A DNA stretch of 64,000 nucleotides from Eledone cirrhosa. Taxonomy: Eukaryota. The notes beneath the pieces were generated by a model, which saw only the letters and a list, made by a program, of their open reading frames with translations, was not told the origin of the DNA and made no database searches. Location of the stretch: the NCBI GenBank assembly GCA_964016885.1, contig OZ024742.1:208630001-208694000 (forward strand). Direction: 5' to 3'. The translations under genes were made by a program, and so were the position numbers. Below, one piece after another: positions 1 to 55,400 of this stretch (positions within the stretch are counted from its first letter, which is position 1; every line of letters starts with the position of its first letter).

Positions 1-2590
1 CTCAGATGTTTTGAATTGTCTGACACGTATCGACTAGATTATCCGAATGTGCCAATGTGGAAATGGGCAAACCGCATCGGGTCATGCAGACCGTATTTAA
101 ATAGGGTATTCTGTAAGGAAACAGATAAGGCTAGTGTAGGTTGTCCACATTTTGAAGTAGTCTATTACACGGACCACAAATTTGTGATCTGTGAAGTTGA
201 CTTAAATAGACTCCATAGGCAAGGGCCAGGTTACTGTAAGAGGACGCGTCATTCCCGGCGCACGAAGCTTACAGAGACCGGATTAGCGAATTAGTTAAGT
301 GTGCATTGACGGGTGGGATCGTCAACAACAGGTGGTGGTTTACCTTGAAAAAAGCTATTAAAGTATAATCGATAAGGTTTAGCACAGGAGTAGTGATAGA
401 GGAAAATAGAGTAAAGGGGGAGTTAGTTAGAAAGCTGGAATAGATGTTTAGGACATGCATCGCAACCGACGTGCTTGCGGCGAGATTGGCACTCGACCAA
501 TTCTTCAACGCAAAGCATGAAGGCTACTGTGTCAGAGCTAGAGCGCGTGCTCTAAGACACGAGGGGACGAAAGCCGTTCAATGTCCCCGAGTAGTGGTGT
601 GCGGGGGAGCATTCTGAGAAAGGACTCGAAAAGTGGGACGTTATAGACAACTTCAGGCCTATAACTCTGCTAAAAGCAGAGTTTAAGATTGTGGCCAATG
701 TGTTAGCAAAGAGATTGCCACTTGTCGTCGGTGAACTGGTGGGAGAGGCGCAGACATGCACCATTCCGGACAGATCCATCCACGACAACCTCCATCTCAT
801 GCGATACATCATAGAGAGGGTGGTTAAGGAACCTGGTACGGGTGGGGCCCTGATCAACTTGGATCAATCTAAAGCATTTGATAGGGTCGACCATCGGTAC
901 CTGGCTGCGGTCCTCGAGGCGGCCGTCTTCGGGCCCGTTTGTAGGGGCGACATCTGCTCGATTGTGAGGGTGAATAGTCACCTGTAGCAGTCTTTCAGCA
1001 TCATGCGCTCGGCCCGCCAGGGTTGCCCCTTCTTGTCCCTCTTGTACGTACTGGCTCTGGAACCGTTGCTGCACGAATTGGAAACGATGAGGGGTCTCAC
1101 GCAAACTGGGATGCAGGAGATCCGTGTCAGCTTATGCCGACGACGTCACCGTGGTGGTGCCGAGCAACAAACAGGTACAGATGCTCGGCACCGCTCTCAA
1201 GCAATACGAAGTGGTGACAGATGCAAAAATAAACCAGGAAAAGTCGGTGGGCTTTCAACTTGGCACCTGGAGAGGCAAGTAAGTCCATGTCGTCCGACAG
1301 CGTCATGAGGCGCTGAACCGGTTAAATTGATAGGGTTCTATTTTGGTCCAGACCTCTAGATGGAGAAAAACTGGAGCTAAGTGACGAGCAGGATGTCTCT
1401 CTCACCCAGATATGGGCTGTCTCTGAAAGGTCGGGCGGAGGTGGCGAATGCGTACATAGCGTCCGTCATCTGCTACCGCCTGACCGTCGTACCTTTCCAC
1501 CGCCCAACTCTGACCAAAATGGAGCGCCTCCTCTTCTGCTTTGTGTGGAAGGAACGCGCTCCCATGGACAGACGAATCGTTTGCTGTCAACCTCCGTTGC
1601 GTGGAGGACTAGGTATGCCGTGGCTGATGATGCGCAAACGGTGAACAGGTGTGGTCGCTCACCACCCTCTACCAACTGGGCATTTGTATCGGTAGTACAA
1701 CCCCCTCGGCGTTCTATAGAGGGCTAGTGGAGGGAAAGAGGGACGACGTTCTCGGGGAGACCCTAGACGTTGAAGACGATCAGCTGTTCGCTCTCTTCAA
1801 GAGAACCTTCAGACCGGCGCCTATCGACAACTTCCAGAAATCCCTGGCCTGTCAGCGCTATCGGGGAGCGTTGCCGGTTCGGGATAAGCTCTACGGAAAC
1901 GGAGGTGCTGTCAGCCGAGCCTGTCCAAGATGCGCGAAGGGCGACGAAAGCGTCCTGCACGCACTCGTTCAGTGCCCGAGGATTGCTGACTTGTGGAGCT
2001 ATGTCGAACAGTTGCTGTCGCGTGTAGGACGGATCCGGTTATCGACCGAGTCCATTGTGCAGATAGCCCCGCCATCCTCCTTTAAAGAGGAGGAAGGGTA
2101 GGCAGTTTTCATCTGCCTGGTGGCCATGGCGAAAGAGAATGTGTGGTGGCCAAGTTTGAAAGGGTTGAAGACGCACACTTTCCTGTCTGGCCAATCCCTG
2201 ATTAACTTTTTCAAGTTCCACTTGAAGAGGAAAAACGGGGTGGAGAGGCAAGTGCTGTCTTCTAGTAAGTTTGTTGAAAGGTTGGTGAAAGTGGTCCAAG
2301 TGAACGGAGTATGCGCCTGTAGACTGAAGAGTGGTAAAACTGAGAGAGGGCGTTTGCCCTGATGGTCATGTTGACCGCGGTCTTTTGTGTGGTTTTCACC
2401 ACGAGTGACCCTCGGAGGTTTCCCCCTTTTCGGGGAATTTTTATGGTTTGAATATTTTAATTTCTTTTTACACATTTCCGTCTTATTACATTTTTACACG
2501 GCCAAAATCCACACCGTACCGTCCTGTAGCATCCTGTGCTGTTTGTAATGTTTTTCTTCATGTTAGCCTCTGTGGCCAATAAATGAAATC
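1..2590 (+). mobile_element. L1/Tx1-like LINE, decayed 3' part (end of APE, RT, CCHC, 3' UTR); continues left of the window
   Basis: Frameshifted ORF pieces: APE C-terminus (PYLNRVF...YTDHK), RT (NLDQSKAFDRVDH; RQGCP), CCHC (CPRCAKGDESVLHALVQC). Ends GCCAATAAATGAAATC then (ATT)n. Confidence 0.9.
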
Positions 2591-6460: not shown

Positions 6461-7090
6461 TGACTTGTGGAGTATGTCGAACAGCTACTGTCGCGTGTGG
6501 AACGAATCCGGCTATCGGCCGAGTCCATAGTGAAGATCGATCCACCGCCTTCCTTAGGTCAGGAAGAGCAGGAAATTTTCCTCTGTCTGGTGGCAGTTGC
6601 GAAAGAGATTATATGGTGGACCAGGTTGAAAGGACTAAAGACAGACACTTTTCTCTTCGGCCAATCCCTCATCAACTTCTTCAAGTTTCACCTGGAAAGG
6701 AAGGTGAGGGTGGAGAGAGAAGTGCTGCTCCCCAGTACATTTGCAAAAAGGTGGGTGAATGTGGCGATAATGACTCGTGTGAATGGGCCTACTCTGACCA
6801 TGCGCCTATAGGCTAGCTAACTTGAGGAGAGGGGTGCTCTCCCTGTGTTCCCTAGAAGCGCAGGGTGGTTCAGGATTGGTGGGGTACCTGAAGCACCCCA
6901 GGGTCGTACACCCCCTATCGGGGAATTTATTTTTTTATATTTATGCATAGTTTATTTTATATTTTTACATTTTCATTGTTAAATTAGTCTTGCCATTGTG
7001 AACTTTTACTCCACCTTATTGTAAACCCCCACTGTCCCTGTCTTTCTATTGTCCCCTACATGTTGGCCCTGGTGGCTAATAAATGAAATC
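6461..7090 (+). mobile_element. 5'-truncated Tx1-like LINE (ORF2 C-terminus + 3' UTR, second UTR type) with target-site duplication
   Basis: ORF 6467-6811 matches the ORF2 C-termini of the other copies. Flanked by ATCATTATTATTATTATCTCT at 6441-6461 and 7088-7108. Confidence 0.9.
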
Positions 7091-13022: not shown

Positions 13023-13744
13023 CTTGCCAGTTCGGGATAAACTCTACAGGCATGGAGGTGCCGTCAGCCGGGCATGTCCGAGATGCGCGCAGGGCGACGA
13101 AACCGTCCTGCACGCACTCGTCCAGTGTCCGAAAATTGCTGACTTGTGGGTTTATGTCGAACACCTGCTGTCGCGTTTAGGACGGATCCGGCTATCAGCT
13201 GAGTCCATCGTGAGGATTGCCCCGCCCGCCTCCTTTAGCCGGGAAGGGCAGGCAGTTTTTATCTGTCTGGTGGCCATGGCTAAAGAGATAGTATGGTGGA
13301 CACGTTTGAAAGGGCTGAAGACGAGCACTTACCTCTTCGGTGATGCTCTGATTGACTTTTTCAAATTTCATTTGAAAAGGAAAATCAGAGTAGAGAGGGA
13401 AGTGCTCTCTTCCCAGCATTTTGTTGAAAGATGGGTGAGAGAAGCAAGAATGGCCCGAGTGAATGGGCCTACTCTGAGTATATATCTGTAAATTAAAGGT
13501 GGAAAACTGGGAGAGGGCACTTGCCTTGGTGGTCAGGGTCATTGTGGCTTTTTATTGGGCTTTCTCCACAAATGTCCCTCCGAAGTCTCCCCCTATTGGG
13601 GAATTTTTCATTGTTATTTTTTGTTACACCCTCTGTTTTTTTTTTGTTTTTTACACGCAGAAATGCCCATTTGAACCGTACTGTATTGTCCTGTACTGTC
13701 CTTAATATCTACTTTATGTAAACCCTTGTGGTTAATAAAGAAAA

Positions 13745-13745
<1 letters not shown>
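13023..13745 (+). mobile_element. 5'-truncated Tx1-like LINE inserted at a SINE (ATT) tail
   Basis: Open ORF 13024-13491 with CPRCAQGDETVLHALVQC; 3' UTR ends GTGGTTAATAAAGAAAAC(ATT)n. Confidence 0.9.
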
Positions 13746-13799: not shown

Positions 13800-13936
13800 T
13801 TCCTTGTATCTCAGTCATTGATGTTGGTTAACTGGAAAGTCCGTTGGAATGAATATCAAGCCACTACCTGCAGCCTCAGATATTCAGGACGTATCGGAGG
13901 GTTCTTGCTGTTCCAAGCAAGCATGCCTTTTGAAGC

Positions 13937-13939
<3 letters not shown>
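13800..13939 (-). mobile_element. ~140-bp Dong-A 3' fragment between two (ATT)n tracts
   Basis: Near-identical to 13980-14119. Confidence 0.9.
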
Positions 13940-13975
<36 letters not shown>

Positions 13976-13979
13976 GTTA

Positions 13980-16900
13980 TTCCTTGAATCTCAGTCATTG
14001 ATGTTGGTTAACTGGAAAGTCCGTTGGATTGAATATCAAGCCACTACCTGCAGCCTCAGATATTCAGGACGTATCGGAGGGTTCTTGCCGTTCCAAGCAA
14101 GCATGCCTTTTGAAGCGTTCCAAAAAGCGTGAAGGGGCCGATTTTCTTTAACCATCCCTGGAAACCTTTGGAGATAGTCCCCAGTGCGCCTATGACAATC
14201 GGGATCACTTTGACTTCATGGCAGTTCCAAATCCTTTTCACCTCCCACTTTAGGTCCTGGTATCGGTTAATTTTCTCCCTCTCCTTCTCTTGCACTCTCG
14301 TGTCGAACGGGCAGGCCACATCCACAATCAGGCACGATCTTTTTTCTTTGTCCACAACCACCAGGTCAGGTCTATTGTGTTCCAGTTTTTTGTCCGTCTG
14401 TATCCTAAAATCCCACAGCACCTTCACCTGACTGTTCTCCATCACCGCCTCTGGCCTATGCTCATACCATTTCTCAGAATGTGGTAGATTGTTTACTTTG
14501 CACAGGTGCCAGTGGATCACCCTGCCCATCACATCGTGTCTCCAGCCCTTATAGTGGGTCTGGGCTAGGTGTTTACACTCGGACACAATGTGAGCCACAG
14601 TCTCCTCTCTCTCTCCACAGATCCTGCACAGTGGGCTAGCCTCCTCCTTGTAGATATGGTGCTTCAACCACTTCGTTTTGAGGGCCTGCTCCTGCGCAGC
14701 CATTAGCATTCCTTCTGTAGCCTTTTTGAGGTCTCCTCTTCTCAACCAGTTCCATGTCTGTGGATCTCTAAATTCAGTTTTCTCAAAGAAGGTACTATGA
14801 AGGGATTTTCCCTTAAGGCTGCTCTTCCTCCTTGATGTTATTTCCTCCTTGGGTATCCCCTGGCCTACTGTCCCCTCCTTCAGTACAGCTCTGAGCATTG
14901 GCTCCTTACTATAGGTCACGTATTTGTATAGGTTGTTTTTCTCCATCTGAACACAGTCCTCTATGCTGATAAGACCTCTTCCACCCTCAGATCTCCTTAG
15001 GTAGAGTCTATCGACATCACTCCTCTTGTGGAACATGTTGTAGATAGTCAATAGCTTCCTAGTCTTCCTATCCATTTCTTTTTGTTCAGCAACATTCCAT
15101 CTCAGAATTCCCGCACTGTACCTAATAATAGACACAGCTCGGGAATTTACTGCGCTTATGGCATTTCTGCTGTTCAGATGTGACTTCAATACGCTCCTTA
15201 CTCTCCGAATGTATTCAGTTCTTAACAATTCCTTCATTTTTTTGTTCTTTATGCCATCAGCCTCCAGAACGCCCAAATACTTGTATCCTTCCTCAGAGTC
15301 AATTTCCTTTATCATCTCACCTGTTGGTATCTGGATCCCGTTACTTCTGCTCAACCTACCCCTCCTCATCACAATGACTCCACATTTACCAATACCAAAC
15401 TGCATACATATATATCACTGCTGAAAATACGGACAGTGTCAACAAGCACATCCAACTCCTTCTCACTTTTCCCGAAGAGCTTAAGATCGTCCATGAAGAG
15501 GAGGTGATTGATGGTAAGCTCTCCCCTTCCCAACTTGTATCCTGCTCTCACTTTTCGCAGCATAATGGTCAAGGGCATCAGGGCAAGGACAAACAACAGA
15601 GGGGACAGGCTATCTCCCTGGAAGATACCTCTCTTGATCTTCACGCTTCCCAAGGATACTCCAGTTGATGTCAACTCTGTCTCCCAGGACCCCATACTCC
15701 TGCCCAGCAACTGTCTGATGTTATCTGCCACCCTGAAGATCTCCAGGCTTTTGGTGATCCAGGAATGAGGCACCATGTCAAATGCCTTTCTGTAGTCTAT
15801 CCATCCCATGGCAAGATCAGTGTGTCTCCTCCTGCAATTCCCCATTACCATCTTATCAATAAGCAACTGGTCCTTTGTACCACGTGACTTCTTTCGGCAT
15901 CCTTTCTGTTCGTCCGGCAACAAGTTGTTTGTGTGGAGGTGATGGTAGATTTCCTCAGACACAATGCTCGTCAACAGTTTCCACATTACGGGCAGACATG
16001 TGATAGGTCTATAGTTGGTAACATCATTACCCTTGATTCGGTCTTTCATTATCAGAACTGTGGTACCTTTTGTCAACCACTCTGGCACCTCACCCGACAC
16101 CAAGCAGTCATTGAACATGGCCGTCAGCTTCGGGTGGAGGGATGTTAAATGTTTAATCCAATACCCCTGCACACCATCTGGGCCTGGTGATTTCCAGTTG
16201 GTTAGTTTTTTGGCTTGCCCCTTAAGAGTTTCAACTGTGATACTCAAATCAGTCTGTTGCTGTGCCTGCTCACCGATCTCCCTCTGTACTGTCTCAATCC
16301 ACCCTGCCTGGGCATTGTGTCTAACATCCTGCTCCCATATTCCTCTCCAGAATGTTTTAGCTTGTTCCGCCCCAGGGATCAAGTCGGTGCCTCTTTCTTT
16401 CCCCTCAAGCTGTCCAAACAGCATCTTCTGGTTGTTGTCGAACATGCGGTTCTGTTTATACTGACTGACTCTGTTCTCGTATCGCCTGATTTTGGCACTC
16501 TTTGCTACAATGCGTTGCTTCAATTCCTCTATGATAATATTTAGCTTTTTACTCCTAGTTTTGTATTTTATTTCCAGTCTATTTTTAGTGCCTATGTTTT
16601 TTAGTGTCCCATTCAGTAGTGACTCAAGCTTTCCTATGTCATTTCTCATTTCCCCGATTTGCCCACTCAGTCGCTTCTTCCACCACGGCTCTGCTCTTTC
16701 TTGTCTGTTGTTTCCTCTCGCTTTTATACCAAGTAGTTTCCTCACCGTATTTGCTGTTGCTTTGAGGATATTGTTGCACTGGTGAAGACTCCTCGCCTCA
16801 AGGTATGGGATGACTTTGTTTACCTTAGCTGTTGTTTCTTTTAACTTTTTCCTGTCTACAAATCTTAGGTTCATAGGTCTCCCACTATCATTGTTCAACT

Positions 16901-18403
16901 CATCTACCACTAAATTTAGGATGTCAACCGAATCTTGTCCTAGCCCGTCAGCATTCATCTCCTCAGTGGCCGTATCTCTGTTCCAGGTATTATTTATCTC
17001 AGTATTCAGATCATTGTCTGCTTCGGGTGGTTCCTCCGCTCTCAGGACCTCCTCACCTTCATTTCCCGCCGGCTCGCTTGTCTGGCATACTACACCCGCC
17101 ATCTCCAAGCCATTCTCTCTGCTCAGTTCCTCCAGTTCCAGCTCGCTTATCCACCCATTAGTTCTTATTACCCGAGCCTGCCCGGCCAATTTTTGTTCAT
17201 CTAATTTAAATAAACCAATCTCGTTCCAGATGTTATGCATCCGTCTCCTGTAGCCCCTCTCCTTGGGGTTACTTTTCAGGTAGCATTGCATAACAGTTCT
17301 ATTCAATTCTTTCGTCCAGTTGGTTCTGGCCCCTTTCCTTCTTCTTCTTCCTCCAACATCAGCAGTATTTGGTTGACAGTCAGGTTCCTGCTGCTGAGCC
17401 AGGGGGCACCTGTTGGGTGAGAGTCTGTCACATGACGTTCTAGTCTCCATTTCACCGTTATTCGAACTGTTTATGTTCGATATTTAAACACTCTTATCGA
17501 GGATTGGCGAATGTATGTTTACATAGCCATCTGTGGATCCGCCATCCCACTTGGCCCTTGTGTGGCATTATCACCACGCTGTATACGGACACACATAAAC
17601 AAACAAACACACGGGCAGAAAGGGTCCCAAAAATGAATAAGCATAAGTTTCATTGTAATGTAGTATTCGAATGTCTGACTTAGTTTTTGTTTTTTAAGTT
17701 TTACTTTTTCCCCCCTCTTCTCTGTCCGTCCGCCTGCTTCTCTCTTCATTCTTATTTTCTTTACGTTTTTGGGGTTTCTTTTTTTGTTTTTGTTTTTCTC
17801 TGTTTTTCTCGTTTTTTACTGTTGTTGCTGTGCTGCTTTTGTTGTTTGTTTTTTCTTTTTTCTTTTGAGTCTATCTATATATTTTGATGCCTTCCTCTTT
17901 GTTAGTAGTAGGAATTCTATAATGTGGAAGTGGTAGCCAGCAGAGACTGGCGGCGTTGGCGATACTGAGACAGTGGTGGTGGTGATGTCGATACCGAGGC
18001 AGTGGTGGCGGTGATGCGACCGTATTACTGTAGTGATGGTGCTGTAGCGGTGGCAGCAGCAGTGAAGGAGTCAGGGGGTGGTGGCGGCGGTGATGGGATA
18101 GTGGAGGTAATGATGGCTGTAGTGAGCGGTGGCGGTGAAGGTGAAAATGCTGTTGTGTTTAGTGTACACAGATGATGGGGTGGGTGGTGTATCTAGTTTC
18201 TGGTGTTGGTGAGTTTCGCTGTCCTATATAGTGTAGCCAGAGGAGAGGAGGGGGGGGGGGTTCTTCTTCTTCCATTTATAGCCATTTTATTTTTTTTTTT
18301 TTTTTTTGGATATACAGTGTACAATACAAAGTTGAATATTTGAATATTTGAGCCGTATTACTGTAGTGATGGTGCTGTAGCGGTGGCAGCAGCAGTGAAG
18401 GAG

Positions 18404-26600: not shown

Positions 26601-28556
26601 CCATACAGGACAACCTCCACCCCATGCGATACATCATAGAATGGGTAGGGTATAAACCTGGCTTCGGTGGGGCACTGATCAACTTAGATCAATCGAAAGC
26701 ATTCGATACGGTCCACCATCGTTACCTGGATGTTGTCCTCAAAGCATGGCTTCGGTCCTGTTTTCAGAAGCTGGAACGCTGCAATGCCCAGCGGCCTCTG
26801 CTCGCTGGTCAAGGTTAATGGCCACCTCTCGGAACCGTTTCGGGTCTCCCGATCAGGGGTGCCCGCTCTCTTCCCTTCTGTACGTATTGACTCTCGAGCC
26901 TTTACTGCGGAAGCTGGAGCTGTTGCAGGGAATCCAGCTCGAACGGGGACGCGGAAGGCTTGTGTCGGCTTAATCGGACGACATCACCGTTATGGAAATC
27001 GAGGTGGTCGGCACCCTATTGAACAAATATGAAAGGTTGGCAGGAGCGAAACTTTACCCGGAAAAATGGGTGGACTTGCAGCTCGGCACTTGGAAAGCAA
27101 GTCCATGCCACCCAACAGCGTCGTGGGGCGCTGGACGAATAGGTAAAGTTGCTCGGGGTTTGGATCAGACCAGACCTCCAGGTGGAAAAGAATCGGTACG
27201 AGATAACGACAAGTTAGCCAGTCTCACCCAAAAATGGGCTGTGAGAGATGGGGAATGCGTACATCGCATCCGTCATCTACTACCGCCTGACCGTGGTGCC
27301 TTGTCCCCAGCCGTACCTCACCAAGTTGGAACGGCTCCTCTTCAAATTCTTGTGGAGAGGATAAGTTCCGTTGTTGAGGCGGTCCATCTGTTGCCAGAAC
27401 CCTCTACGCGGAGGGCTGGGCATGCCGTGGCTAATGATGCGCAGACATGCGCTGAGGCTACGACATCTCCAGATATTCTGCCTAAACGGTGAACAGGTGT
27501 GGTCGCCGTTTATCAGACAGACCTTTCCGCAGCTAGTTTCTTTGACTGAGCTGCAGTCTTGGGTCAAGAAGAGACCAAGACTGGGTGACCGGCACCTGGA
27601 CTCTTGCCAGGCACTTACTGCCCACTACCAAGCGGGCAATGTGATAAGTGGAATTTACACTCCCGAGTTCTATAGAGAATTAGTGGTTGGCAAGTGCGAT
27701 GACGCACTCGGAGAGGCTCTGACCAGTCTGTTCCGGAGGATGTTCGAGCCAAGGACAATGGATAACTTCCAGAAATACCTCGCTTGACAGTGCTACCTGA
27801 GGGCACTGCCGCTTCGAGATAAATTCTACAGGCACTGTAGTGCTGTCAGACGGACCTGCCCGAAATGCACACAGAGTGACGAAAGGGTTCTGCACGCACT
27901 TGTCCTATGTCCCTGCATTACTGACTTGTGGAGTCATGTCGAACAGCTGTTGTCACGTGTAAACGGATCCGGCTTTCGGCCGAGTCCATAGTGAAGATTG
28001 ACCCACCGCTTTCATTTGGCCAGGAAGGCCAGGCAACTTTCCTCTATCTGGTGGCAGTTGCGAAAGAGGTTGTATGGTGGAACAGATTGAATGGAGTGAA
28101 GACAGACACTTTTTTCTTCTGCAAATCCCCCATCAACTTCTTCATGTTTTACATGGAAAGGAAGGTGAGGGTGGAGAGAGAAGTTCTGCCCCGCCCTCCA
28201 GTACATTTGATAAAAGGTGGATGAATGTGCCGAGAATGGCCCGTGTGAATGGGCCTACTGTGACCATGCGCCTATAGGCTAGCTAACTTGAGGAGAGGGT
28301 TATCTCCCTGGGTGCCCTAGAAGCGCAGGGTAGTTCAGGATTGGTGGGGTACCTGAGTCATCCCTGGGTCGTCCACCCCTATAGGAGAATTTATTTTGTT
28401 ATACTTATGCATAGTTTATTTTATATTTTTATATCCTCATTGTTAAATTAGTTTTGCCATTGTGCACTTTTACTCGTCCTTATTGTAAACCCCCACTGTC
28501 CCTGTCTTTGTGTTGTCCCCTACATGTCGGCCCTTGTGGCTAATAAATGAAATCAT
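23635..28556 (+). mobile_element. Older, diverged Tx1-like LINE (ORF1 remnant, APE, RT, CCHC, second UTR type)
   Basis: ORF1 knuckle CFVCGEATHLQAFC; APE start LRVGSLNVRGL; SYIDR; NFRPITLLN; LDQSKAFD; 3' UTR matches 6810-7090. The 5' boundary is approximate. Confidence 0.88.
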
Positions 28557-34251: not shown

Positions 34252-34555
34252 TTTGAAAGATGGAAAAATTGAGAGAGGGCGCTTGCCCTGGTGGGCAGGG
34301 TGGCTGTGGTCTTTTGTGTTGTTTTCGCCACGAGTAACCCTCGGAGGTTTCCCCCGTATTGGGGAATTTTCCATTGTTTCAATTTTCATTTTTATTGTTT
34401 ATATATATATGTTTCTATGTCCTTTTTTTCCTTTTCTTATATAAATAATAAAAATATTTACACGCACAAAACCCACATCGTACCGTCCTGTACCGTCCTG
34501 TGCCGTCTGTAATGTCTTTCTTGGTGTCAGCCCTTGTGGCCAATAAAGAAATCAC

Positions 34556-34805: not shown

Positions 34806-35501
34806 GGCGACTTACTTATGAAAGCGTGTTATCACGAGCTCCTAAAGGTTTGTTGTTTTAAGTTGTTTTGAATTGCAAGTTATGGAAAATTTTTGTTGTT
34901 AAGTTTTGATAATTTCTCATATATTGCTTTCTGAAAATGACAGTCAATCATATTGGGTGGGTTCCTTCAGCCCAAATTTAAACTTTATTTTGTCAAACAA
35001 TTCACGTCTAAATATATAGTCTATTTTTCTTTTAGAATTTAGTTTTGTTTGTTTACCCTTTCTTATTGACATCCTATTAGTTAAGCTTTATGATGAAAAA
35101 GAATTCTAAGACCTTTATCTTTAATGCCAGTAGATCTGAATAACATACTATAATGTTCTCTTCAAATCTGAGAAGAGATCTTTAACAAGGTCTCAGTAAC
35201 AGCGACTAGCATGTTGTTGATAACTGACTGGGCGCGCTGATCCTAACATTGATATCGTAATTTGTCTTGCAAAAACCAAACATTAGAATTCTCTCTTTTA
35301 TATAAAATAAATGATCCATGCAATACGAAACCAGAATATTTGATAAGCTGGCAGCAGATGACAATCTAAACGTGAAAAGCTTGTCTCATATGAATGTGTA
35401 ACATAAAAGTAGATTTGAAATGAATGTCTTTTGGTCCCTACTGAAATTGTAAGACTGTTTATGAGGTAATGTCAATAGAAATGGCCATATAGATAAAAAT
35501 G

Positions 35502-39000: not shown

Positions 39001-41290
39001 ATGCCAGACTTGTTCGGTGACCTCTTGGCAGACTTTTACTGCAACTGGCAGCAGAACGGGAGCATTCCCAGTTTTGTGAGCCGGGAATGGTGGCGCTGCT
39101 GAGAAAAGAGCCGAACAAGGGGGGTGTTGGCGACAATTTCAGGCCCATAACCCTGCTAAACGCAGAGTTCAAGATTTTGGCCAAGGTGTTAGCAACGAGG
39201 TTGGCGCTTGTCGTCAAGGGTCTGGTGGGAGAGGCGCAGACATGCGCCATTCCGGAGAGATCCATACCCGACAACCTTCACCTCATGCGATACATCATAG
39301 ATTGGTTGTATAAGGAACCAGGCACGGGTGGGGCCCTGATCAACTTGGATCAATCCAAAGCATTCGATAGAGTCGATAATCGGTACCTTGCGGCGGTCCT
39401 CGAGGCATCTGGTTTCGGGTCCGTTTTCAGGGGTTGGATCGCTGCGATATACAGCGACATCTGCTCAGTTGTGAGGGTGAACGGTCACCTGTCGCAGCCG
39501 TTCAGAATCATGCGCTCAGTCTGCCAGGGTTATCCCCTCTCGTCCCTCTTGTACATATTGGCTCTCGAGATGTTATTGCACAAACTGAGGGCGATGAGGG
39601 GCGTTCCACGCGAACTAGGATGCGGGAAATCCGAGTCGGCTTACGCCGACGATATCACATTGTTGGTGTCGAGCACCAGACACGTCCAGATTCTCGGCAC
39701 CGCTCTCAAGGAATACGAAGCGGTGACAGGAGCAAAGATAAACCAGGAAAAGTTGGTGGCCTTGCAGCTCGGCACCTGGAGGGGCAAGTCCATGCCGTCC
39801 GACAGCGTCGTGGGGCGTTGGACGGACGGACCAGTTAAATTGATCGGTGTCTGGTTCGGACCGGACCTCCAAATATAGAACAACTGGAACGAGGTGACGA
39901 GCAAGGTGGCCTCCCTCACCCAGAAATAAGCCGAGAGGAAGCTGTCCCTGAAAGGCCGGGCGGAAGTGACGAATGCGTACATCGCATCCGTTATCTGCTA
40001 CCGCCTCACCGTCGTCCTTGCCCCGGCCCAACTCTCACCACAATGGAGCGCCTCATCTTCCGCTTATTGTGGAAGGGATGAGCTCCCATGGTCAGACGAT
40101 CCATCTGCTGTCAATACCCGTTGCGTGTAGGGTTGAGCATGCCATGTCTGATGATGCACAAAAAGCGCTGAGGCTGCGACATCTCTGGTGCTTCCTTGAC
40201 GGTGAACAGGTGTAGTCGCCGTTCGCGAGGCACATTTTCCCACAGCTCGTCTCCTTGACGGAGGTGCAGTCCTGGGTCAGGAAAGGAACGAGAGATAGCA
40301 CTTGAAAACTGTAATGTCTCCAGGCGCTCACTGCCCTCTTCCAGCTGGGCACCAGTATCGGTGGAACATCCATCTCGACGTTCTATAGAGGAGTAGTGGA
40401 GGGGAAGAGCGACGACGTTCTCGGAGAGATCCTGGGCGTCGAAGAAGATTAGCTGTTTGCTCTCTTCCGGAGAACTTTCAGCACAGGGTCTATGGATAAC
40501 TTCCAAAAATCCCTGGACTACGGGGGAGCGCTGCGGGTTCGAGATAAGCTCTACAGGCACGAAAGTGACGTCAACCGAGCCTGTCCGAGATGCGCGCAGA
40601 GCCACGAAACCGTCGTGCACGCACACGTTTAGTGCCCGAGCATTGCTGACTTGTGGAGCTATGTCGAACAGTTGCTGTCGCGTATGGGACTGATCCGGTT
40701 GTCGACTGAGTACATTGTGCAGATGGTCTCGCCGTCTTCCTTTGAGGAGGAAGGGCAGGCGGTTTTCATCTGCCTGGTGGCCATGGCGAAAGGGATCGTG
40801 TGGTGGACAAAGTTAAAAGTGTTAAAGACAGACACTTTCCTCTTCGGCGAATCCCTAATTAACTTTTTCAAGTTTCCCTTGAAGAGGAAAATCAGGGTGG
40901 AGAGGCAAGTGCTGCCTTCTAGCAACTTTGTTGAAAGGTGGGTAAATGTAGGGAGAATGGTCCACTCTGAATATACGCCTGTAGTTTGAGAAATGGAAAA
41001 ATTGAGAGAGAGCGCTTGCCCTGGTGGTCAGGGTGGCCGTGATCTTTTGTGTGGTTTCCGCCACGAGTAACCCTCAGAGGTTTCTCCCCTATTGGGGAAT
41101 TTTTCATTGTTTCAATTTTCATTTTTATTGTTTATATATATATATATGTTTCTATGTCTTTTTTTTCTTTTCTTATATAAATAATTAAAATCTTTACACG
41201 CACAAAACCCACATCGTACCGTCCTGTACCGTCCTGTGCCGTCTATAATGTTTTTCTTGATGTCAGCCCTTGTGGCCAATAAATAAATAA
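36040..41290 (+). mobile_element. Tx1-like LINE, 5'-truncated in ORF1, decayed
   Basis: Knuckle KCYLCGSKGHHTAYC ~36670; ORF2 ATG at 37615 (MALLRIGSINARGL); GDWN, YTDH, YADD; 3' UTR near-identical to 34250-34555; (ATT)n 41290-41355. Confidence 0.92.
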
Positions 41291-41355: not shown

Positions 41356-44300
41356 ATTGTAGAAGTATACAGGTCGCAGGAAAATTTTACTCTCCTAAGT
41401 TTGTGATTTTTGAAGTTTTATTGCGAACTTATTGTAAAAATTTGAATTGTTTTGTATTTAAACAAACCCCGTTTCTTTTGAGGTGGTCGGAATTAATCAG
41501 TATTTAGCCCTTCGAGGCTAAATTCCATTTTGAACTTTGCATTTAGCAAATACGCCCCAAAAAGAAAAATGGCATCATTCAAAAAATCTGTTTCTCTACC
41601 CTGTCTCCACACAAAAATTACTCCTTCACCAAGCTATCGTTCTCTACCTTGACTTTCCTCACAACAATTTCTTTGTTCACCAAGCTGTCAGGGTGGTGTC
41701 TAGCTTTCCTTTTCGTCTTCTTCATCGTCACATAGTGAAAGTCAAGCAAAGGCTATTTCATTCTCTTCTTCATCAAACGGTGGTTGAGAAGCGGCTGCTG
41801 CTGATGCATTTGACAACAAAGGAGGTAGCAGCAGCAGTGTCAGTATCAACAATAACACCTGTGGTAGAGGTAGCAGCAGCAGGAGCAACACCAAAAACAC
41901 CGTTTGAAGCAGTAACAACAATAAGAGCACCAACAAAATCACCAGTAACAGCAGAAGCGGCGGCAACAATGATGCCACTGAAAAAGGGACCATCTCTTTT
42001 GCAACGGTGGTTCGCAACTTAGAAACAGTCCTGGTCACAGAGGAGGAGATGGCGATCGCAAGACACGTGGTAACCAGAACTGAAATTTCAGTGTCCTTGA
42101 AACCACAAACCGACTTCCTGGTGGAACAAGTGCGACGCACAGTGACATACTGCACGATTGCCACGAAATTACGTCGTGGAGAGAGCCTCGGAGGCCCAAA
42201 TCCAGAAGGCCTTGGGAACCGTGTGGGCACGGAAAACCCACATCACCTGTGGCAAGAAATATGCTACTGTGGGCGTCCATTTTGCTACCACCCAGGAAGC
42301 AGAATCGTACTCACTGAGGACCCTAAGAAGTGATGACATAACGTTATTCACGTTTTACAGCAGCAAAAAAATTGCAAAGGTCAGAGTATCCCAGGTCCCG
42401 ACCTACGTACCCGTGCCTTGGCTGGTCGTGTCTGTACTTGCGGGCATCGAGAATAGAACAACCATTCTGCAGGTACAGAAGTTTGGGAGAGAGGACTGGT
42501 CGGGTATTGGAATGGAGATACTCAGGCAAATCGACCGGGACTACACCAGCGCTATTCCTGACGTAATATACCTCGGGAAAGGCTCCCAACTTCCCATATC
42601 TGTCGAAGGAAGGCGCCCAAAGTGTTTCAACTGTGCGTTGAAGTATCACCTCAGGGCCTTCTGCCCAAAGAAAATAACAAAGGCGAAGGTCCCCCTCCTT
42701 CAAACGCCGGAACTGCTGCCATCAGAAACAGAGCAGTCAGCGAAAAATTCGGGAGATTCTACAGAGAGTAGGAAGACAACGTCCGTGGCACCCACACCAA
42801 AGCCACGAACAACAGAAACACCGGCGGCTGCTGCAGCAACAGACACAGTTGCAATAGCTGCACCTCTGCCAAGAACGGCAAAGTAGGCTCCACCATCACC
42901 AGCAAAAACAACACCAAAGACAAATGAGAGGGTAGAACTCATACCTCCCCCCGACCTCTCACAGTCGGACATATAGTATGAGGCGGCTGAGGAGTGGAAA
43001 ACGGTTGTCAACAAAAAAAAAACAAAAAAAAACGTAAACACGCCACAATTTGTCCCTCCAAAAACGAAGACAATGAAAGAGGAGTAAAGGCTGCAAGGAG
43101 ACTTGAAGCAACACCAGCACAAGCATCCCCACCAACAACAACCACACCACCACCAGCATCACCACAAACAGCAACATCCCAAACACAAAAAAGCACACAC
43201 ACCCAACAGCAACAACAGAAAGAACATCACCCCCCCCCCCCCCACACACACACACACTCCAACACAAAGAAAAGTTCACAGCCATAAACATTGCACACAA
43301 AGGATTAATGGAACATATAAAACATCACACCGATATTTCAGACTTAAATTACCACACCCCACCAACACCAAGAACATTACCCAAAAACATGACAATTGTC
43401 GAAATTAAACTGGAAGACAATAAACAGTTAAAGCAAAAATTCCCCGACTGCGTTGGAGATTTCAGAGAGTCACGCTCCAAGAGAATCTATACAGATATGA
43501 TCTTGGAGACACCCATGACCAACCGAAGGGGTGGTTCTACTGTCCCTTCCCGACACGATCAGGGTAGGTGATCCTTTCTCACTTACCAGTTCCTCACCAA
43601 TGTAAATGTACGTGGCCTGGGATCATCTTGGTAGCAGGGTCATCTGCTCAACAACCTCAGGGCACTAAATATAGATGTGGTGGCCATCAGTGAGACCAGA
43701 ATCTCTGAAGCACGCGTCTTCGCACCGATCTTCGGCGGCTACGATGTAGACGCCTCTCCCAGCCGTCCGAGATCGGGGGGTGGAGTTGCTGTGCTTTTTC
43801 GGAGAGGCTTGGATCTCGCCTTACGGTCCATCTTCCTTGACACAGAAGGTAAGTTGGTGGTGCTGGACGTGACTGGCAGCGAAGGCAATGCTTTCAGTCT
43901 AGTAGCCGTTACGCCCCAACAGAGGCAGGACGGCCAGATTTCTTCAGACGTCTAGAGACCTTTCTTGAAATGTCTCGCTCTTTAGTGTTAGTGGGCGACT
44001 GGAACGGTATCTTAGATGCACGCTGGGAATATGTGGGGATAGTAGACGGGGGAAGAGGGTGTAAAAGCCTCAAAAACCTGCTCAAACGTTTTCAACTGTC
44101 TAACAGCTATAAACTGGATTATCTGAATGTGCCAATGTGGACATGGGCAAACCGCAACGGGTCATCCAGGCCGTATTTAGATAGGGTATTCTGTAGGGAA
44201 ACACATGAGGCTAGTGTAGGTTATCCCCAATTTAAAGTAGTTGACTACACGGATTACAAATGTGTGATCTCTGAAGTTGATTTAGGTAGACTCCATAGGC

Positions 44301-46847
44301 AAGGGCCCGGTTACTGGAAGCTGAAAGCGTCATTCCTGGCGCGCAAGGCTTATAGAGTAGAGGGAGAGCTAGTTAGAATAGAAGAGGCTTTTAGTACAGG
44401 CATCGCAATCGACGTGCTTGCGGCAAGATTGGCACTCGAACAATTCTTTAACGCAAAGCATGAAGGCTGCGTTGTCAGAGTTAGAGCATGCTCTATGCAC
44501 GATGGGACGAAAGCAACTTAATTGGCCCGGGTGGTGGAGACTCGACGTGGAAACAAGTCCACAATTCGGTCTTTGCCTGAACCCGAGCAGATGTGTGCGG
44601 TTTTTCAACAGCACTTTGCTCAATTGATCGGGAGCGGCTATCTCTTGGCAGATGTCTACTGCAACTGGCAGCATAACGGTAGAATTCCCAGGTTTGAATT
44701 CCCAGCTTAGAAAAGACCCAAATAAGGGGAACGTTATAGCCAAATTCAGGCCCATAACACTGCTGAATGCAGGGTTCAATATTTTGGCCTAGGTGTTAGC
44801 AAAGAGATTGTCGTCGGTGATCTGGTGGGAGAGGTGCAGACATGCGCCATTCCGGACAGATCCATCCACGATAACCTCCATCTCATGCGATACATCATAG
44901 AGAGGGTGGCTAAGGAACCTGACACGGGTGAGGCCCTGATCAACTGGGATCAATCCAAAGTATTCGATAGGATCGACCATTGTTACCTGGTGGCGGTCCT
45001 CAAGACAGTGGTTTCGGGGCCGTTTTCAGGGGTTGGATCGCTGCGATGTACAGCGACATCTGTTCAGTTATGAGGGTGAACGGTCATTTGTCGCAGCCGT
45101 TCAGCATCATGCGCTCGGTCCGCCAGGGTTGTCCTCTTTCGTCCCTCTTGTACGTATTGGCTCTCGAGCCGTTACTGCACAAACAGGGGGGCGATGAAGG
45201 GCGTCCCACGCGAACTAGGACGCGGAAAATCCCTTCGGCTGACGCCGACGACATAACCATGGTGGAGTGGTGCACCAGACACATTCAGATGCTCGGCACC
45301 ACTCCCAAGCAATACGAAGCGGTGACAGGACCAAAGATAAACCAGGAAAAGTCGGTGGGTTTGCAGCATGGCACCTAGAGAGGCAAGTCCATGCCTCCGA
45401 CAGCGTCGTGGGGCGTTGGACGGGCGGACCGGTTAAATTGCTCGGGGTCTGGTGCAGACCGGACCTCCAGATGGAGAACAACTGGGGTGAGGTGTCGATC
45501 AGTGTGGCCTCCCTCACCCAGAAATGGGCCGAGAGGAAGCTGTCCCTGAAAGGCCGTGCAGAGGTGGCATCCGTCATCTGCTACCGCCTCATCGTCCTTC
45601 CTTGCCCCGGCCCAACTCTCACCAAAATGGAGCGCCTCCTCTTCCGCTTTTTGTGGAAGGGACGCGCTCCCATGGTCAGACGATCCATCTGCTATCAACA
45701 CCCGTTGCGTGGAGGACTGGGCATGCCATGGCTGATGATGCGCAAACACGCGCTGAGGCTGCGACATCTCTGGTGCTTCCTTGATGGTGAACAGGTGTGG
45801 TCGCCGTTCGCGAGACACGTTTTCCCACAGCTCGTCTCCTTGACGGAGCTTCAGTCCTGGGTCAGGAAAAGACCGAGAGCTAGCGCTTGGAAACTGGAAT
45901 GTCTCCTGGCGCTCACCACCCTCTGCCAAGTAGGCTCCAGTATCGGTGGAACATCCATCTCGACGTTCTATAGAGAACTATTGGAGGGGAAGACCGTCGA
46001 CGTTCTCAGGGGGATCCTGGGCGTCGAAGAAAATCAGCTATTTGCTCTCTACCGGAGAACTTTCATCCCAGGATGGTATAACTTCCAAAAATCCCAGGCA
46101 TGGCAGTGCAACCGAGGAACATTGTCGGTTCGAGATAGGCTCTACAGGCACGGAAGTGCCGTCAGCCGAGCCTGTCCGAGATGCGCGCAGAGCGACGAAA
46201 CGATCGTGCACGCACTCGTTCAGTGCCTTAGCATTGCTGACTTGTGGAGCTATGTTGAACAGTTGCTGTCGCGTGTAGGACTGATCCGGTTATCGACTGA
46301 GTCCATTGTACAGATGGTCTTGCCGTCTTCCTTCGAGGTGGAAGGGCAGGCAGATTTCATCTGCCCTGTGGCCATGCGAAAAAGATTGTGTGGTGGACAA
46401 GGTGGAAAGGGTTGAAGAAGGACACTTTCCTCTTCGGCGAATCCCTAATTAACTTTTTCAAGTTTCAATTGAAGAGGAAAATCAGGGTGGAGAGGCAAGT
46501 GCTGTCTTCTAGTAAGTTTGTTGAAAGGTGGGTGAAAGTGACGAGTCTATTCCGAGTGAACGAGCTCGCTCTGAGTATGCGCCTGTAGCCTGAGGAGTGG
46601 GAAAACTGAGAGAGGGCGCTTGCCCTGGTGATCAGGGTGGCTGTGGTCTTTTGTGTGGTTCTTGCCACGAGTGACCCTCGGAGGCTTCCCCCTTTTCGGG
46701 GAATTTTTGTTTTTGAATTTTTTTGATATTTCTATCTTTTTATAACCTTTTTACACGACCAAAACCTACTTTGTATCTTCCTGTACCGATCTGTGCCGTC
46801 TGTAATGTTTTTCTTCATGTTAGCCCTTGTGGCCAATAAAGAAACCA
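41356..46847 (+). mobile_element. Tx1-like LINE, full span with internal deletions, head-to-tail with the previous copy
   Basis: ORF1 knuckle KCFNCALKYHLRAFC; APE GDWN; RT motifs; CPRCAQSDETIVHALVQC; ends GGCCAATAAAGAAACC(ATT)n. Confidence 0.92.
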
Positions 46848-46857
46848 TTATTATTAT

Positions 46858-47363
46858 GGCGGTGAATTGACAGTATCGGTAGAGGGTGGGACGTCATGCT
46901 TTGCACCCTACAGTTACTGCCCTTTATGATCTGGTTTCGAATTCCGCCGAGGTTGCCTTTGCCTCTCATTCTTGCGGGGTCGATGAAAGAAAGTACCCGT
47001 CACGCACCGGGGACGATATAATCTGCTTTCCCCTCCCCCTAAACTGCTGGCCTTGTGCCTATATAAGAAACCATTATTATTTGTATTACTTGGCCAGCAA
47101 TTCCCCCCTCCCCAACTTCAGTATTGCACTGGTGTAACTGATGGCCTTGTGCAAAAGTATAAACAATTATTACTATTATTGTGGATTGGCAGTATTGGTA
47201 GAGGGTCGCACGCCATGCTTTGACGCATAGAGTTACGGCCCTTGCCATTCTGAGTTCAAATCCCACCTAGGTTGACTTTGCCTTTCATCCTTACGGGTGT
47301 CGATAAAATAAAGTACCAGTAATGCACTGGGTAATTGCTGGCCTTGTGCCTAAAGTAGAAACA

Positions 47364-47407
<44 letters not shown>
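46858..47407 (+). mobile_element. SINE cluster (long variant ~46858-47080, fragment, short variant ~47180-47407)
   Basis: A/B-box-like motifs, core, shared 3' end, (ATT)n tails. Confidence 0.85.
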
Positions 47408-49260: not shown

Positions 49261-49453
49261 ATTATTGGCAATATCGGTAGAGCGTCAGATACAATGCTTT
49301 GCAGCATAGAGTTATGGACATTTATTTTCTGAGTTCAAATCCCACCGAGATTAGCTTTGCCTTTCATCCTTACAGGGTCGATAAAATAAAGCACCAGTAA
49401 TGCAATGGGGTGTTTGATGCCCTTGTGCCAAAAGTAGAAACATTATTATTATT
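49261..49453 (+). mobile_element. tRNA-derived SINE
   Basis: TGGCAATATCGG, GAGTTCAAATCCC, core, GCCCTTGTGCCAAAAGTAGAAACATTATT. Confidence 0.85.
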
Positions 49454-52101: not shown

Positions 52102-52420
52102 TAAAGGTTGTAAGTTTAATCATCATCATTATCTATTCGATAAAACTACATACATGCAACTTTCTCTGATGAAGGGGAGTAGAGAGAGGTATTCTGATTG
52201 TATTAGAGGGGTAAAGCGTCATGTATTTAGTTTTATAGATTATTTCCATAACTGTGGGTGAGTCTGAATGAAATAAATAGTCGGTGACCTAAATTAGACC
52301 ATTTACAACATTCTTACAGACATTGAGTCGAATCGGTTTCAAATTGTGCAAATGTATAAACATGGAACATGCACACACACACACACACAACAACAACAAC
52401 AACAATCTGCCTTTTATAGA
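51414..52420 (-). mobile_element. Non-autonomous Helitron, family B (internal (CT)n at ~52010-52100)
   Basis: On the minus strand: A|TCTATAAAAGG...GACCCCGAGCAACGCCGGGCTTTAATGCTAG|T, i.e. 5'-TC, 3' GC hairpin + CTAG, A^T target. Confidence 0.72.
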
Positions 52421-52423
52421 TAA

Positions 52424-55400
52424 CTAGCAGTAAAGCCCGGCGTTGCTCGGGGTCGCTCAGTAGCTGTGTTAAAGTTACAATGTTAAGTTTCTTTTTTGGC
52501 TTAAAAACTGTAGTGTCTACTGTGCAGACTTGCATGTGGTGTTTTTGATTAATATTCCCTCAACCAACAATATGCCTTATGAAGTTAAGAAAACATAACG
52601 ATAACCCGAATGTTATAACAAAAGAGGATGCTGGGGATAAAAACTGCACTGGTTATTTATTAACAAAGATCGAAAATGTAAACACTGCAACGCAGAGAAA
52701 AACATTAGCGTAACCAAATTATCAGTTATGTCTGTCTGCACGCCTATATCACCTCTCTGCACGACTGTCTGTCTGCACGCCTATATCACCTCTCTGGACG
52801 ACTATCTGTCTGCACGCCTATATCACCTCTCTGCACGACTGTCTCTCTGCACGCCTATATCACCTCTCTGCACGACTGTCTGTCTGCACGCGTATATCAC
52901 CTCTCTGCACGACTGTCTGTCTGCACGACTGTCTGTCTGCACGCCTAACGAAATTTACAGATACATATATTTTAAATAAACTTATATAATTTTTGCTTTT
53001 TTTTACGAAATATTTGCTTGTTTTACGTAGTCTTTAAATAGACTTGTTTTCAAGTCAAAATATTGTTTTAAAATGCTTTTAAATGGAAATGAAGCAAAAC
53101 GGAAGCTTAGTGTTCGAACTGATGAATTTTGCAGGTCAATATTTTGCTGGCTCGACAACTGTTCGTGTATTGTGTTAATGTCATTTTAAACGCTGAGAAA
53201 GCCAGCGTAATTTTTTACGTAAGACGCTCAATGTAAACAGAACAAAGGGAAATAATTGATAACCTACGCTCAAAAATCGATACATTATATTCGATTTCGT
53301 CACATAGGGTGGGTCAATTTGAAATATTTTTTTCCGATGTCTTCGCTAGGGCTCAATGTACAAGTATAGCAATTTCGGTGCAATTCCGTGAGAGATTCTA
53401 AGAGGAGATGTGTGCCAAAAATCGATAGACAGACAGACAACCACAGTTTTATATATATAGACTAGCAGTAAAGCCCGGCGTTGCTCGGGGTCGCTCAGTA
53501 GCTGTGTTAAAGTTACAATGTTAAGTTTCTTTCTTGGCTTAAAAACTCTAGTGTCTACTGTGCAGACTTGCATGTGGTGTTTTTGATTAATATTCCCTCA
53601 ACCAACAATATGCCTTATGAAGTTAAGAAAACATAACGATAACCCGAATGTTATAACAAAAGAGGGTGCTGGGGATAGAAACTGCACTGGTTATTTATTA
53701 ACAAAGATCGAAAATGTAAACACTGCAACGCAGAGAAAAACATTAGCGTAACCAAATTATCAGTTATGTCTCTCTGCACGCCTATATCACCTCTCTGCAC
53801 GACTGTCTGTCTGCACGCCTATATCACCTCTCTGCACGACTATCTGTCTGCACGCCTATATCACCTCTCTGCACGACTGTCTGTCTGCACGCCTATATCA
53901 CCTCTCTGCACGACTGTCTGTCTGAACACGTATATCACCTCTCTGCACGACTGTCTGTCTGCACGACTGTCTGTCTGCACGCCTAACGACGAAATATTTG
54001 CTTGTTCTACGTAGTCTTTAAATAGACTTGTTTTCAAGTAAAAATATTGTTTTAAAATGCTTTTAAATGGAAATGAAGCAAAACGGAAGCTTAGTGTTCG
54101 AACTGTTCGTGTATTGTGTTAATGTCATTTTAAACGCTGAGAAAGCCAGCGTAATTTTTTACGTAAGACGCTCAATGTAAACAGAACAAAGGGAAATAAT
54201 TGATAACTTACGCTCAAAAATCGATACATTATATTCGATTTCGTCACATAGGGTGGGTCAATTTGAAATATTTTTTTCCGATGTCTTCGCTAGGGCTCAA
54301 TGTACAAGTATAGCAATTTCGGTGCAATTCCGTGAGAGATTCTAAGAGGAGATGTGTGCCAAAAATCGATAGACAGACAGACAACCACAGTTTTATATAT
54401 ATAGACTAGCAGTAAAGCCCGGCGTTGCTCGGGGTCGCTCAGTAGCTGTGTTAAAGTTACAATGTTAAGTTTCTTTCTTGGCTTAAAAACTCTAGTGTCT
54501 ACTGTGCAGACTTGCATGTGGTGTTTTTGATTAATATTCCCTCAACCAACAATATGCCTTATGAAGTTAAGAAAACATAACGATAACCCGAATGTTATAA
54601 CAAAAGAGGGTGCTGGGGATAGAAACTGCACTGGTTATTTATTAACAAAGATCGAAAATGTAAACACTGCAACGCAGAGAAAAACATTAGCGTAACCAAA
54701 TTATCAGTTATGTCTCTCTGCACGCCTATATCACCTCTCTGCACGACTGACTGTCTGCACGCCTATATCACCTCTCTGCACGACTATCTGTCTGCACGCC
54801 TATATCACCTCTCTGCACGACTGTCTGTCTGCACGCCTATATCACCTCTCTGCACGACTGTCTGTCTGAACACGTATATCACCTCTCTGCACGACTGTCT
54901 GTCTGCACGACTGTCTGTCTGCACGCCTAACGACGAAATATTTGCTTGTTCTACGTAGTCTTTAAATAGACTTGTTTTCAAGTAAAAATATTGTTTTAAA
55001 ATGCTTTTAAATGGAAATGAAGCAAAACGGAAGCTTAGTGTTCGAACTGTTCGTGTATTGTGTTAATGTCATTTTAAACGCTGAGAAAGCCAGCGTAATT
55101 TTTTACGTAAGACGCTCAATGTAAACAGAACAAAGGGAAATAATTGATAATTTACGCTCAAAAATCGATACATTATATTCGATTTCGTCACATAGGGTGG
55201 GTCAATTTGAAATATTTTTTTCCGATGTCTTCGCTAGGGCTCAATGTACAAGTATAGCAATTTCGGTGCAATTCCGTGAGAGATTCTAAGAGGAGATGTG
55301 TGCCAAAAATCGATAGACAGACAGACAACCACAGTTTTATATATATAGACTAGCAGTAAAGCCCGGCGTTGCTCGGGGTCGCTCAGTAGCTGTGTTAAAG

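Follow-up and report, generated by a model that had tools for sequence, protein, structure and literature searches.

An abundant tRNA-type SINE in Eledone cirrhosa is likely mobilised by ATT-targeting Tx1 LINEs

The stringent pairs of short interspersed elements (SINEs) and long interspersed elements (LINEs) of the L2 and CR1 groups (UnaSINE/UnaL2; ZfL2-1, ZfL2-2) have a common 3' stem-loop with a constant loop, a covarying stem and a short repeat after it (PMC4176376, PMC3747384, PMC4824008), and the model for L2 LINEs has a constant loop on a variable stem (PMC4176376). We analysed a stretch of 64,000 nucleotides (nt) from Eledone cirrhosa, hereafter the window (assembly GCA_964016885.1, contig OZ024742.1, positions 208,630,001 to 208,694,000 of the forward strand), in which runs of ATT connect many units of an abundant tRNA-type SINE and of LINEs, among them LINEs of the Tx1 type, which belong to the L1 group. 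A sequence-only reading of the window had proposed that the SINE is driven by the Tx1-like LINE through a motif of ~25 nt. The partnership is supported by our results, and the SINE is quite probably mobilised by ATT-targeting Tx1 LINEs, but a covarying hairpin with a spacer describes the motif more aptly than a 25-nt sequence does.

This system differs from the L2/CR1 pairs in that the partner is of the L1 group, that binding of the hairpin is inferred from sequence, that the shared stretch is ~24 nt as compared to 35-61 bp in bivalve pairs (PMC11481361), and that the repeat is target DNA lying within a duplication of 12-19 bp. Tail-sharing partners from the L1 group are a known exception. In a table of 58 SINE-LINE pairs, three SINEs have L1 tails and none has a Tx1 tail (PMC3747384). 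A shared L1-clade 3' end has been described for ZmSINE2/3 and LINE1-1_ZM in maize, with a covarying hairpin as in our case, and for SINEX-3 and L1-1_CR in Chlamydomonas (PMC3472496, PMC3747384); these partners are plant and algal L1 elements rather than animal Tx1, and the available portions of both sources describe no microsatellite target. In crocodilians, the SINEU elements are tied to Tx1-Mar by their target, and tandem copies sandwich a single duplication; their heads derive from snRNA, their tails are poly(A), and no LINE similarity is reported for the 3' half of SINEU-1 (PMC4494074), whereas the SINE considered here lacks poly(A), starts with a tRNA-type head and has a hairpin in common with the LINE. 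Microsatellites are also targeted by the Tx1-clade LINEs Kibi, in (TC)n, and Koshi, in (TTC)n, and by crocodilian Tx1 in (TTCC)n and (TTTC)n, as compared to (ATT)n and (ATCT)n here, and no partner SINE is described for them in the text available (PMC4494074). The set of LINEs in our data (RTE-like, Dong-like, CR1-like and Tx1) resembles the one listed for Octopus vulgaris, where SINEs make up ~12% of the genome and the available text names no partner LINE (PMC13282606).

We found neither a tail-sharing Tx1-SINE pair nor a partner of an octopus SINE in the literature searched, a search that had Repbase, the SINEBase supplements, Ohshima and Okada 1994 and 2005 and older subscription papers outside its scope. 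No such pair is named in the available portions of PMC5786205, PMC4758252, PMC11481361, PMC8967140, PMC3531059, PMC4824008, PMC9115989 and PMC5753468. The partnership, which we did not find described for this lineage, is likely a variant of stringent SINE-LINE pairing. Octopus SINEs, OR1 and OR2 among them, were reportedly described by Ohshima and Okada in 1994 (as cited in PMC4758252, PMC4824008 and PMC3531059, where the available text gives no partner LINE for them); a third is known as OK. We presume that the abundant SINE in E. cirrhosa is octopus-like.

The nine LINE and SINE ends quoted in the sequence-only reading were all present, at most one base away from the positions given. The seven LINE ends represent three Tx1 subfamilies, referred to as A (2566, 34530, 41266, 46823), B (7065, 28530) and C (13722). 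In end-anchored alignments of 30 nt, SINE tails were compared to these ends against a null set of the 30 nt upstream of every other ATTAT (3,361 sites in 79 spaced 10-kb stretches, 0.79 Mb). The similarity exceeded chance for Tx1-A and Tx1-B (z = 3.2-6.6, with an equal score at 2-16 of the 3,361 sites) and was weaker for Tx1-C (z = 2.1-3.8). Dong ends were without such similarity (z = -0.9 to 2.0), in agreement with the earlier claim. When the analysis was rerun, a score of 8 was reached at 8 of 3,352 null sites, which comprised four SINE copies, three SINE-like stretches inside a foldback repeat and one unclear SINE-like site. The shared terminus covers only ~24 nt: a stem of 3-4 bp with the loop CTTGT, followed by an A-rich spacer ending in GAAAnn. 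Upstream of the stem the likeness ends (mostly 0-4 matches per 10 nt). In unanchored comparisons to Tx1 3' ends, the short form of the SINE gave no signal against the 250-nt end of Tx1-A (101 of 200 shuffles scored as high) and the long form a weak one against Tx1-A and Tx1-B (5-7 of 200). Two of the quoted SINE copies are atypical: the one at 47049 belongs to an older long-form variant and has its best match in Tx1-A, with a score of 14 as compared to 9-10 for typical tails, and the one at 49419 has a G>C change that disrupts the stem.

In both SINE and Tx1 ends, the loop CTTGT and its closing stem are located 10-13 nt ahead of the junction. The stem reads AGCC/GGCC in Tx1-A, GGCC/GGCT in Tx1-B, AACC/GGTT in Tx1-C, mostly TGCC/GGCA or GGCT in sister families, and TGGC/GCCW in the SINE. 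The pairs covary, with GGC/GCC in the SINE as compared to GCC/GGC and ACC/GGT in the Tx1 families, and changes on both sides were observed at three of the four pairs. None of the 500 shuffles attained the covariation score of 0.343, nor did any slid control, for a set of 18 rows hand-picked to span the variants and a shuffle control that ignores relatedness; the four rows in which the flipped pair is G-C, from three copies of the SINE and from the 5' untranslated region (UTR) of Tx1-C, correspond to one or two events. An unvarying loop on a changing stem agrees with the model for L2 LINEs (PMC4176376). Contigs from sequencing runs, aligned to the locus, gave no further information on the ends or the covariation.

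The SINE end is followed by the five bases ATTAT (88-95% per position in 103 sampled ends), with near-background composition beyond. A duplication of 10-22 bp was identified in 17 of 27 full-length SINEs and starts with ATTAT in 15 of them, as compared to a mean of 0.7 and a maximum of 4 in the shuffled control. ATTAT was also recovered from the 5' flank of 18 of these 27 copies, against a background of 4.5%. Because it stands in the 5' flank as well, the (ATT)n is pre-existing target DNA and not a tail, and its earlier assignment to the shared 3' end was rejected. Genome-wide (3.0 Gb, to which all genome-wide pattern counts refer), one SINE-end pattern was followed by ATTATTAT in 39,996 cases and by ATAATAAT in 185, and SINE ends followed by ATCTATCT numbered 3. 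Full-length Tx1 copies (~5.9 kb) have (ATT)n flanks on both sides. Duplications outside pure repeats were read from Tx1-B ends at which the base after ATTAT is not T, of which there are 98 in the genome; 30 were fetched, 17 were truncated within reach and 8 of these 17 had a duplication. Four clear cases (L368, L372, L380 and L387) measure 16-19 bp and start with ATTAT; L025 is a further copy with a duplication. SINE and Tx1 thus have a common insertion geometry, a duplication of ~12-19 bp beginning at ATTAT, for which the evidence is thinner in Tx1. When 3,056 ATTAT sites were clustered, SINE and Tx1-C were the element ends among the clusters listed. Tandem SINE copies with one identical duplicated target between them (L070, L086, L100, L044) indicate repeated insertion at one junction. 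Three old long-form SINEs (L035, L074, L081) are followed by AATAT instead of ATTAT, by decay or as an older target variant.

The SINE reaches a density of ~130 3' ends per Mb. A B-box motif is present in 25 of 27 full-length copies, which had been selected by an A-box-like motif; for both boxes the usual consensus was assumed. The GGCGG start, together with a CCGCC that follows the B box, is reminiscent of an acceptor stem. No match of the SINE head to a tRNA was obtained with ARAGORN or Rfam, and ARAGORN found no tRNA in the window and seven relaxed calls in 1.96 Mb. The short form has lost ~30 nt upstream of the hairpin, with the hairpin and its spacing kept. Median divergence from the majority sequence is 2.1% (n = 26), 6.3% (n = 42) and 14.3% (n = 27) in the SINE subfamilies, as compared to divergence ranges of 0.6-9.5% in Tx1-C, 2-16% in Tx1-A and ~3-20% in Tx1-B. 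The Tx1 ranges exclude four rows that diverge by more than 27% and were misassigned, as well as ten ends without an assignment, and most Tx1 rows were chosen by similarity or exact pattern, which biases the set to young copies. One SINE lies inside a Tx1-C 5' UTR with a 15-bp duplication (L166), and a SINE tail precedes 5 of 39 full-length Tx1 starts. The activity periods overlap, with nesting in both directions. The sequence-only reading had staked its proposal on overlapping ages and target signatures; the ages do overlap and the duplications start with ATTAT in both, with a difference in stringency.

The assignment of the LINEs to Tx1 is based on protein domains, structure and phylogeny. 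The second open reading frame (ORF2) of the copy at L164 contains PF03372 (endonuclease), PF00078 (reverse transcriptase) and PF13966 (zinc), with a separate ORF upstream, and its nearest solved structure is the human L1 ORF2p (E = 1e-52 as compared to 1e-21 for R2). Intact ORF2 copies of 1,152 amino acids were identified at L164, L169 and L177. In the reverse transcriptase tree, for which the reference set was without non-Tx1 L1 elements, these LINEs group with proteins named TX1 149 kDa, apart from the CR1-, RTE- and Dong-like rows (100/99). Sister Tx1 families (L045, L048, L056, L097, L106, L267-L286) sit in (ATCT)n, keep the 3' hairpin and are 50-66% identical to family C. Their lineage accounts for 4,163 ends in ATCT repeats, as compared to 6,590 exact B- and C-type ends by a pattern that misses family A, and includes young copies, some 98% identical to one another. 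The tree places these families as sister to the B families (99/99), within the ATT-targeting group, a placement that suggests a target switch from ATT to ATCT in this lineage.

The duplications starting with ATTAT, the same junction, the shared covarying hairpin and the overlapping ages argue that the SINE likely borrows the Tx1 enzyme. The hairpin combined with an ATTAT-initiated duplication discriminates the partner, and this signature was not seen in the CR1, Dong and RTE-like LINEs. We consider it reasonably probable that the hairpin is the bound recognition signal. In the proposed mechanism, the ORF2 protein of an (ATT)-targeting Tx1 would grip the 3' RNA hairpin (loop CUUGU) 10-13 nt ahead of the insertion point, and the endonuclease would nick the strand opposite ATTAT. 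The 3' end exposed at the nick would pair with AUUAU read through by the RNA from its own flank, such that reverse transcription would start at this pairing and not within a poly(A) tail, and a second nick ~12-19 bp downstream would yield the duplication. Every insertion would re-form the ATTAT junction, which could explain the head-to-tail arrays. Since the AATAAA of the LINE stands just ahead of the junction, several AUU units would be expected at the end of the LINE RNA, and the pairing of such read-through with the nicked strand may set the stringency of the target. That an animal lineage of the L1 group kept stringent hairpin-based RNA recognition, with the strictness of the DNA target set by 3' read-through of the template, is a tentative generalization that we put forward with some doubt. 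If true, a single Tx1 enzyme would insert LINE RNA that carries long (AUU)n into extended (ATT)n runs and SINE RNA with AUUAU only at any ATTAT (~0.4 million copies), and would skip the SINE at (ATCT)n nicks.

The partnership would identify what probably drives a repeat that ranks among the most abundant of this genome, and an animal Tx1 case is relevant to the question whether strict recognition of RNA is an ancestral trait of the L1 group. Strict recognition is made testable by the intact ORF2 copies and the natural stem variants, and a 24-nt signal with a five-letter target offers a compact model of target choice shared between template RNA and endonuclease.

Several observations weigh against mobilisation by Tx1 through the hairpin. 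The match between SINE and Tx1 is short and partly A-rich. The stem has 3-4 bp, its fourth pair fails in 10 of the 18 rows, and its predicted folding is no better than that of shuffles (z = -1.1 to +1.0). In an earlier, unselected set of truncated Tx1 copies, a duplication was identified in only 4 of 25. The target stringency is unequal: the SINE uses any ATTAT, with an ATT repeat of at most 8 nt at 86 of 101 ends, like background ATTAT sites (3,844 of 4,423), while Tx1-C uses long (ATT)n runs, a repeat of at least 15 nt being present at 37 of 40 Tx1-C, 19 of 27 Tx1-A (11 ATCT-type rows caught by the filter excluded) and 12 of 28 Tx1-B ends. This inequality may also reflect selection or an unsampled driver. 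SINEs are almost absent from ATCT repeats although the ATCT lineage is young and bears the hairpin, which is thus not sufficient by itself; the few SINE ends at ATCTATCT despite the ATCT sister copies argue for the hairpin as a mark of the lineage and for the target as what singles out the ATT-type families. Finally, the SINE stem fits the hairpin in the Tx1-C 5' UTR about as well as the one at the 3' end (scores 7-8 as compared to 9-10), so the SINE tail may derive from either of the two.

Some of these observations are also expected if Tx1 moves the SINE by pairing of AUUAU with the nicked target only, with the hairpin as a relic of the origin of the tail. Such relaxed recognition fits the weak folding and the failure of the hairpin-bearing ATCT-type Tx1 to carry the SINE, and it has a precedent in SINEU, which was assigned to Tx1-Mar without 3' similarity (PMC4494074). 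We nevertheless regard it as unlikely, given that two-sided changes preserve the stem across lineages that are 50-98% identical in ORF2, with unrelated sequence immediately upstream, and that the SINE dropped ~30 nt in that region yet retained the hairpin and its spacing.

It is quite improbable that the true driver is an unsampled, low-copy or extinct LINE of relaxed ATTAT specificity, possibly from another Tx1 branch. All Tx1 subfamilies that were measured have a stricter target than the SINE, ATTAT is followed by a base other than T at 20 of 74 SINE ends as compared to only 98 B-type ends in the whole genome, and a LINE 3' end with the exact stem of the SINE was not found. On the other hand, SINE-like junctions do occur in the truncated Tx1-B copies, and no LINE with a better or longer match, which the sequence-only reading had named as evidence against itself, was found in the spaced samples (0.79 Mb), the 74 loci from pattern searches and the 20 regions selected by their endonuclease. 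When the whole genome was searched with three patterns for a SINE-type stem outside a SINE context, there were 14, 834 and 729 hits, of which 14, 30 and 30 were inspected; none of these stems with non-standard neighbours belonged to a LINE and all were SINEs or SINE fragments, the patterns being such that a rare LINE also sharing the next six upstream bases of the SINE would be missed. Neither did 57 truncated SINE tails have a common upstream sequence foreign to SINE and Tx1, except for one unassigned pair. A closer match to the last 19 nt of the SINE, in a foldback repeat (twice in L080, once in L087), was rejected as a partner, because the three copies continue identically past ATTAT within the foldback and the stretch is thus not an element end. 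This repeat (L080:8200-9963, L087:5042-5641, L112) has long inverted arms and an internal stretch resembling the SINE tail. LINEs ending in (GAT)n, (TA)n or (GT)n, which we take to be RTE-like, were without the hairpin.

An endonuclease family search, in which 20 of 150 matches were extended, recovered a LINE with an ORF of 957 amino acids that we presume to be CR1-like from its position in the tree. It is very young, with copies up to 99% identical and 9,309 exact ends, and has a true (ATT)n tail in the polarity of the SINE, with ATT absent from its 5' flank. The same ATT polarity, offered in the sequence-only reading as a link between SINE and Tx1, holds for both, but it does not discriminate since this LINE shares it, and polarity was dropped as proof of a partner. 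CR1 and L2 are moreover the commonest SINE partners (PMC3747384). It is nonetheless very improbable, and largely refuted, that this LINE drives the SINE and that the likeness to Tx1 is a coincidence or an older partnership: it has no hairpin, its tail scores -5 to -1 against the SINE, and, unlike in the SINE, no duplication at the first ATT was found in 21 truncated copies. Its tails act as landing sites for SINEs and Tx1-C, seeding ATT arrays. The elements at three loci (L335, L347, L358) have the CR1-type tail, diverge from the young LINE ~235 nt upstream and have another sequence in common there; they may represent an older subfamily or a non-autonomous partner. A Dong-type driver, although young, abundant and in the same ATT/TAA arrays, has almost no probability, because Dong ends are without tail similarity and 27 of them are followed by AAT/AAC repeats in the opposite polarity, an orientation found at 185 SINE ends as compared to 39,996; the polarity refutes it, barring a second family of Dong-like elements with insertions on the opposite strand.

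Returning to the Tx1 LINEs, families with unrelated 5' ends all bear a hairpin ~40-50 nt upstream of the ORF1 start. In family C its loop is CTTGT and its stem is oriented as in the SINE, and in the B families it is preceded by a hairpin with a GTGA loop. The hairpin ahead of ORF1 may be a site for the same protein, and the SINE tail may have originated from it. Rfam gave no credible match for the Tx1 5' UTRs or the SINE.

Table 1. Positions of the features discussed, in the window unless a locus is given.
Feature	Position	Strand	Evidence or remark
Tx1-type LINE, subfamily A, decayed (frameshifts, deletions)	41360..46846	+	self-BLAST, Pfam; 5' end approximate
5' UTR hairpin, 8-bp stem, ~45 nt upstream of likely ORF1 ATG	41502..41523	+	
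LINE 3' hairpin, stem AGCC/GGCC, loop CTTGT	46822..46834	+	
Last 12 nt of LINE: AATAAA signal and GAAACC spacer	46835..46846	+	sequence
ATT run separating LINE from SINE; target DNA or its duplicate	46847..46857	+	sequence, duplication analyses
SINE, long (older) form, A-box-like and B-box motifs	46858..47072	+	
SINE 3' hairpin, stem TGGC/GCCT around the loop CTTGT; second pair reversed as compared to LINE	47048..47060	+	
3' piece of SINE, 5'-truncated, followed by ATT	47119..47165	+	self-BLAST
SINE, short (younger) form, without ~30 nt ahead of hairpin	47181..47363	+	hairpin 47339-47351
(ATT)n, 14.7 units	47364..47407	+	
SINE copy, one change breaks the stem	49264..49441	+	
Tx1-A 3' end, loop variant TCTGT	2565..2590	+	
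Tx1-B 3' end, stem GGCC/GGCT	7065..7090	+	
Tx1-C 3' end, stem AACC/GGTT, two compensatory changes	13721..13745	+	
Tx1-B 3' end, directly adjoined by truncated SINE (28559-28605)	28529..28555	+	
Tx1-A 3' end	34529..34553	+	
Tx1-A 3' end	41265..41290	+	
Second LINE type (Dong label from the sequence-only reading), same ATT array, opposite strand	13802..17988	-	control, without hairpin
CR1-type LINE copies	L324, L325, L326, L330, L332-L361		
Tx1 5' UTR hairpin sites	L164:970-1004; L155, L182, L188; window 41502-41523, ~28800-28820, ~34955-34980		

The window as a whole is a pile-up of co-oriented LINEs with endonuclease and reverse transcriptase (APE-RT) on the plus strand, together with the second LINE type on the minus strand and 22 SINE-like matches. 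In the LINE that ends ahead of the long-form SINE, Pfam matches were obtained for the endonuclease (43853-44518) and zf-RVT (45243-46412), and the reverse transcriptases of sister copies were placed in the tree. Truncated Tx1 pieces that abut a SINE tail with no ATT run in between (L003, L008, L131) may reflect template switching or target deletion; no flanking duplication was seen at these three chimeras. Older SINE-like elements (L045, L055, L065, L068) have the central B-box region in common and differ in their heads and 3' parts. A tandem array at 52412-56257 of the window consists of units of ~950-1,000 nt, each with a 37-nt minisatellite.

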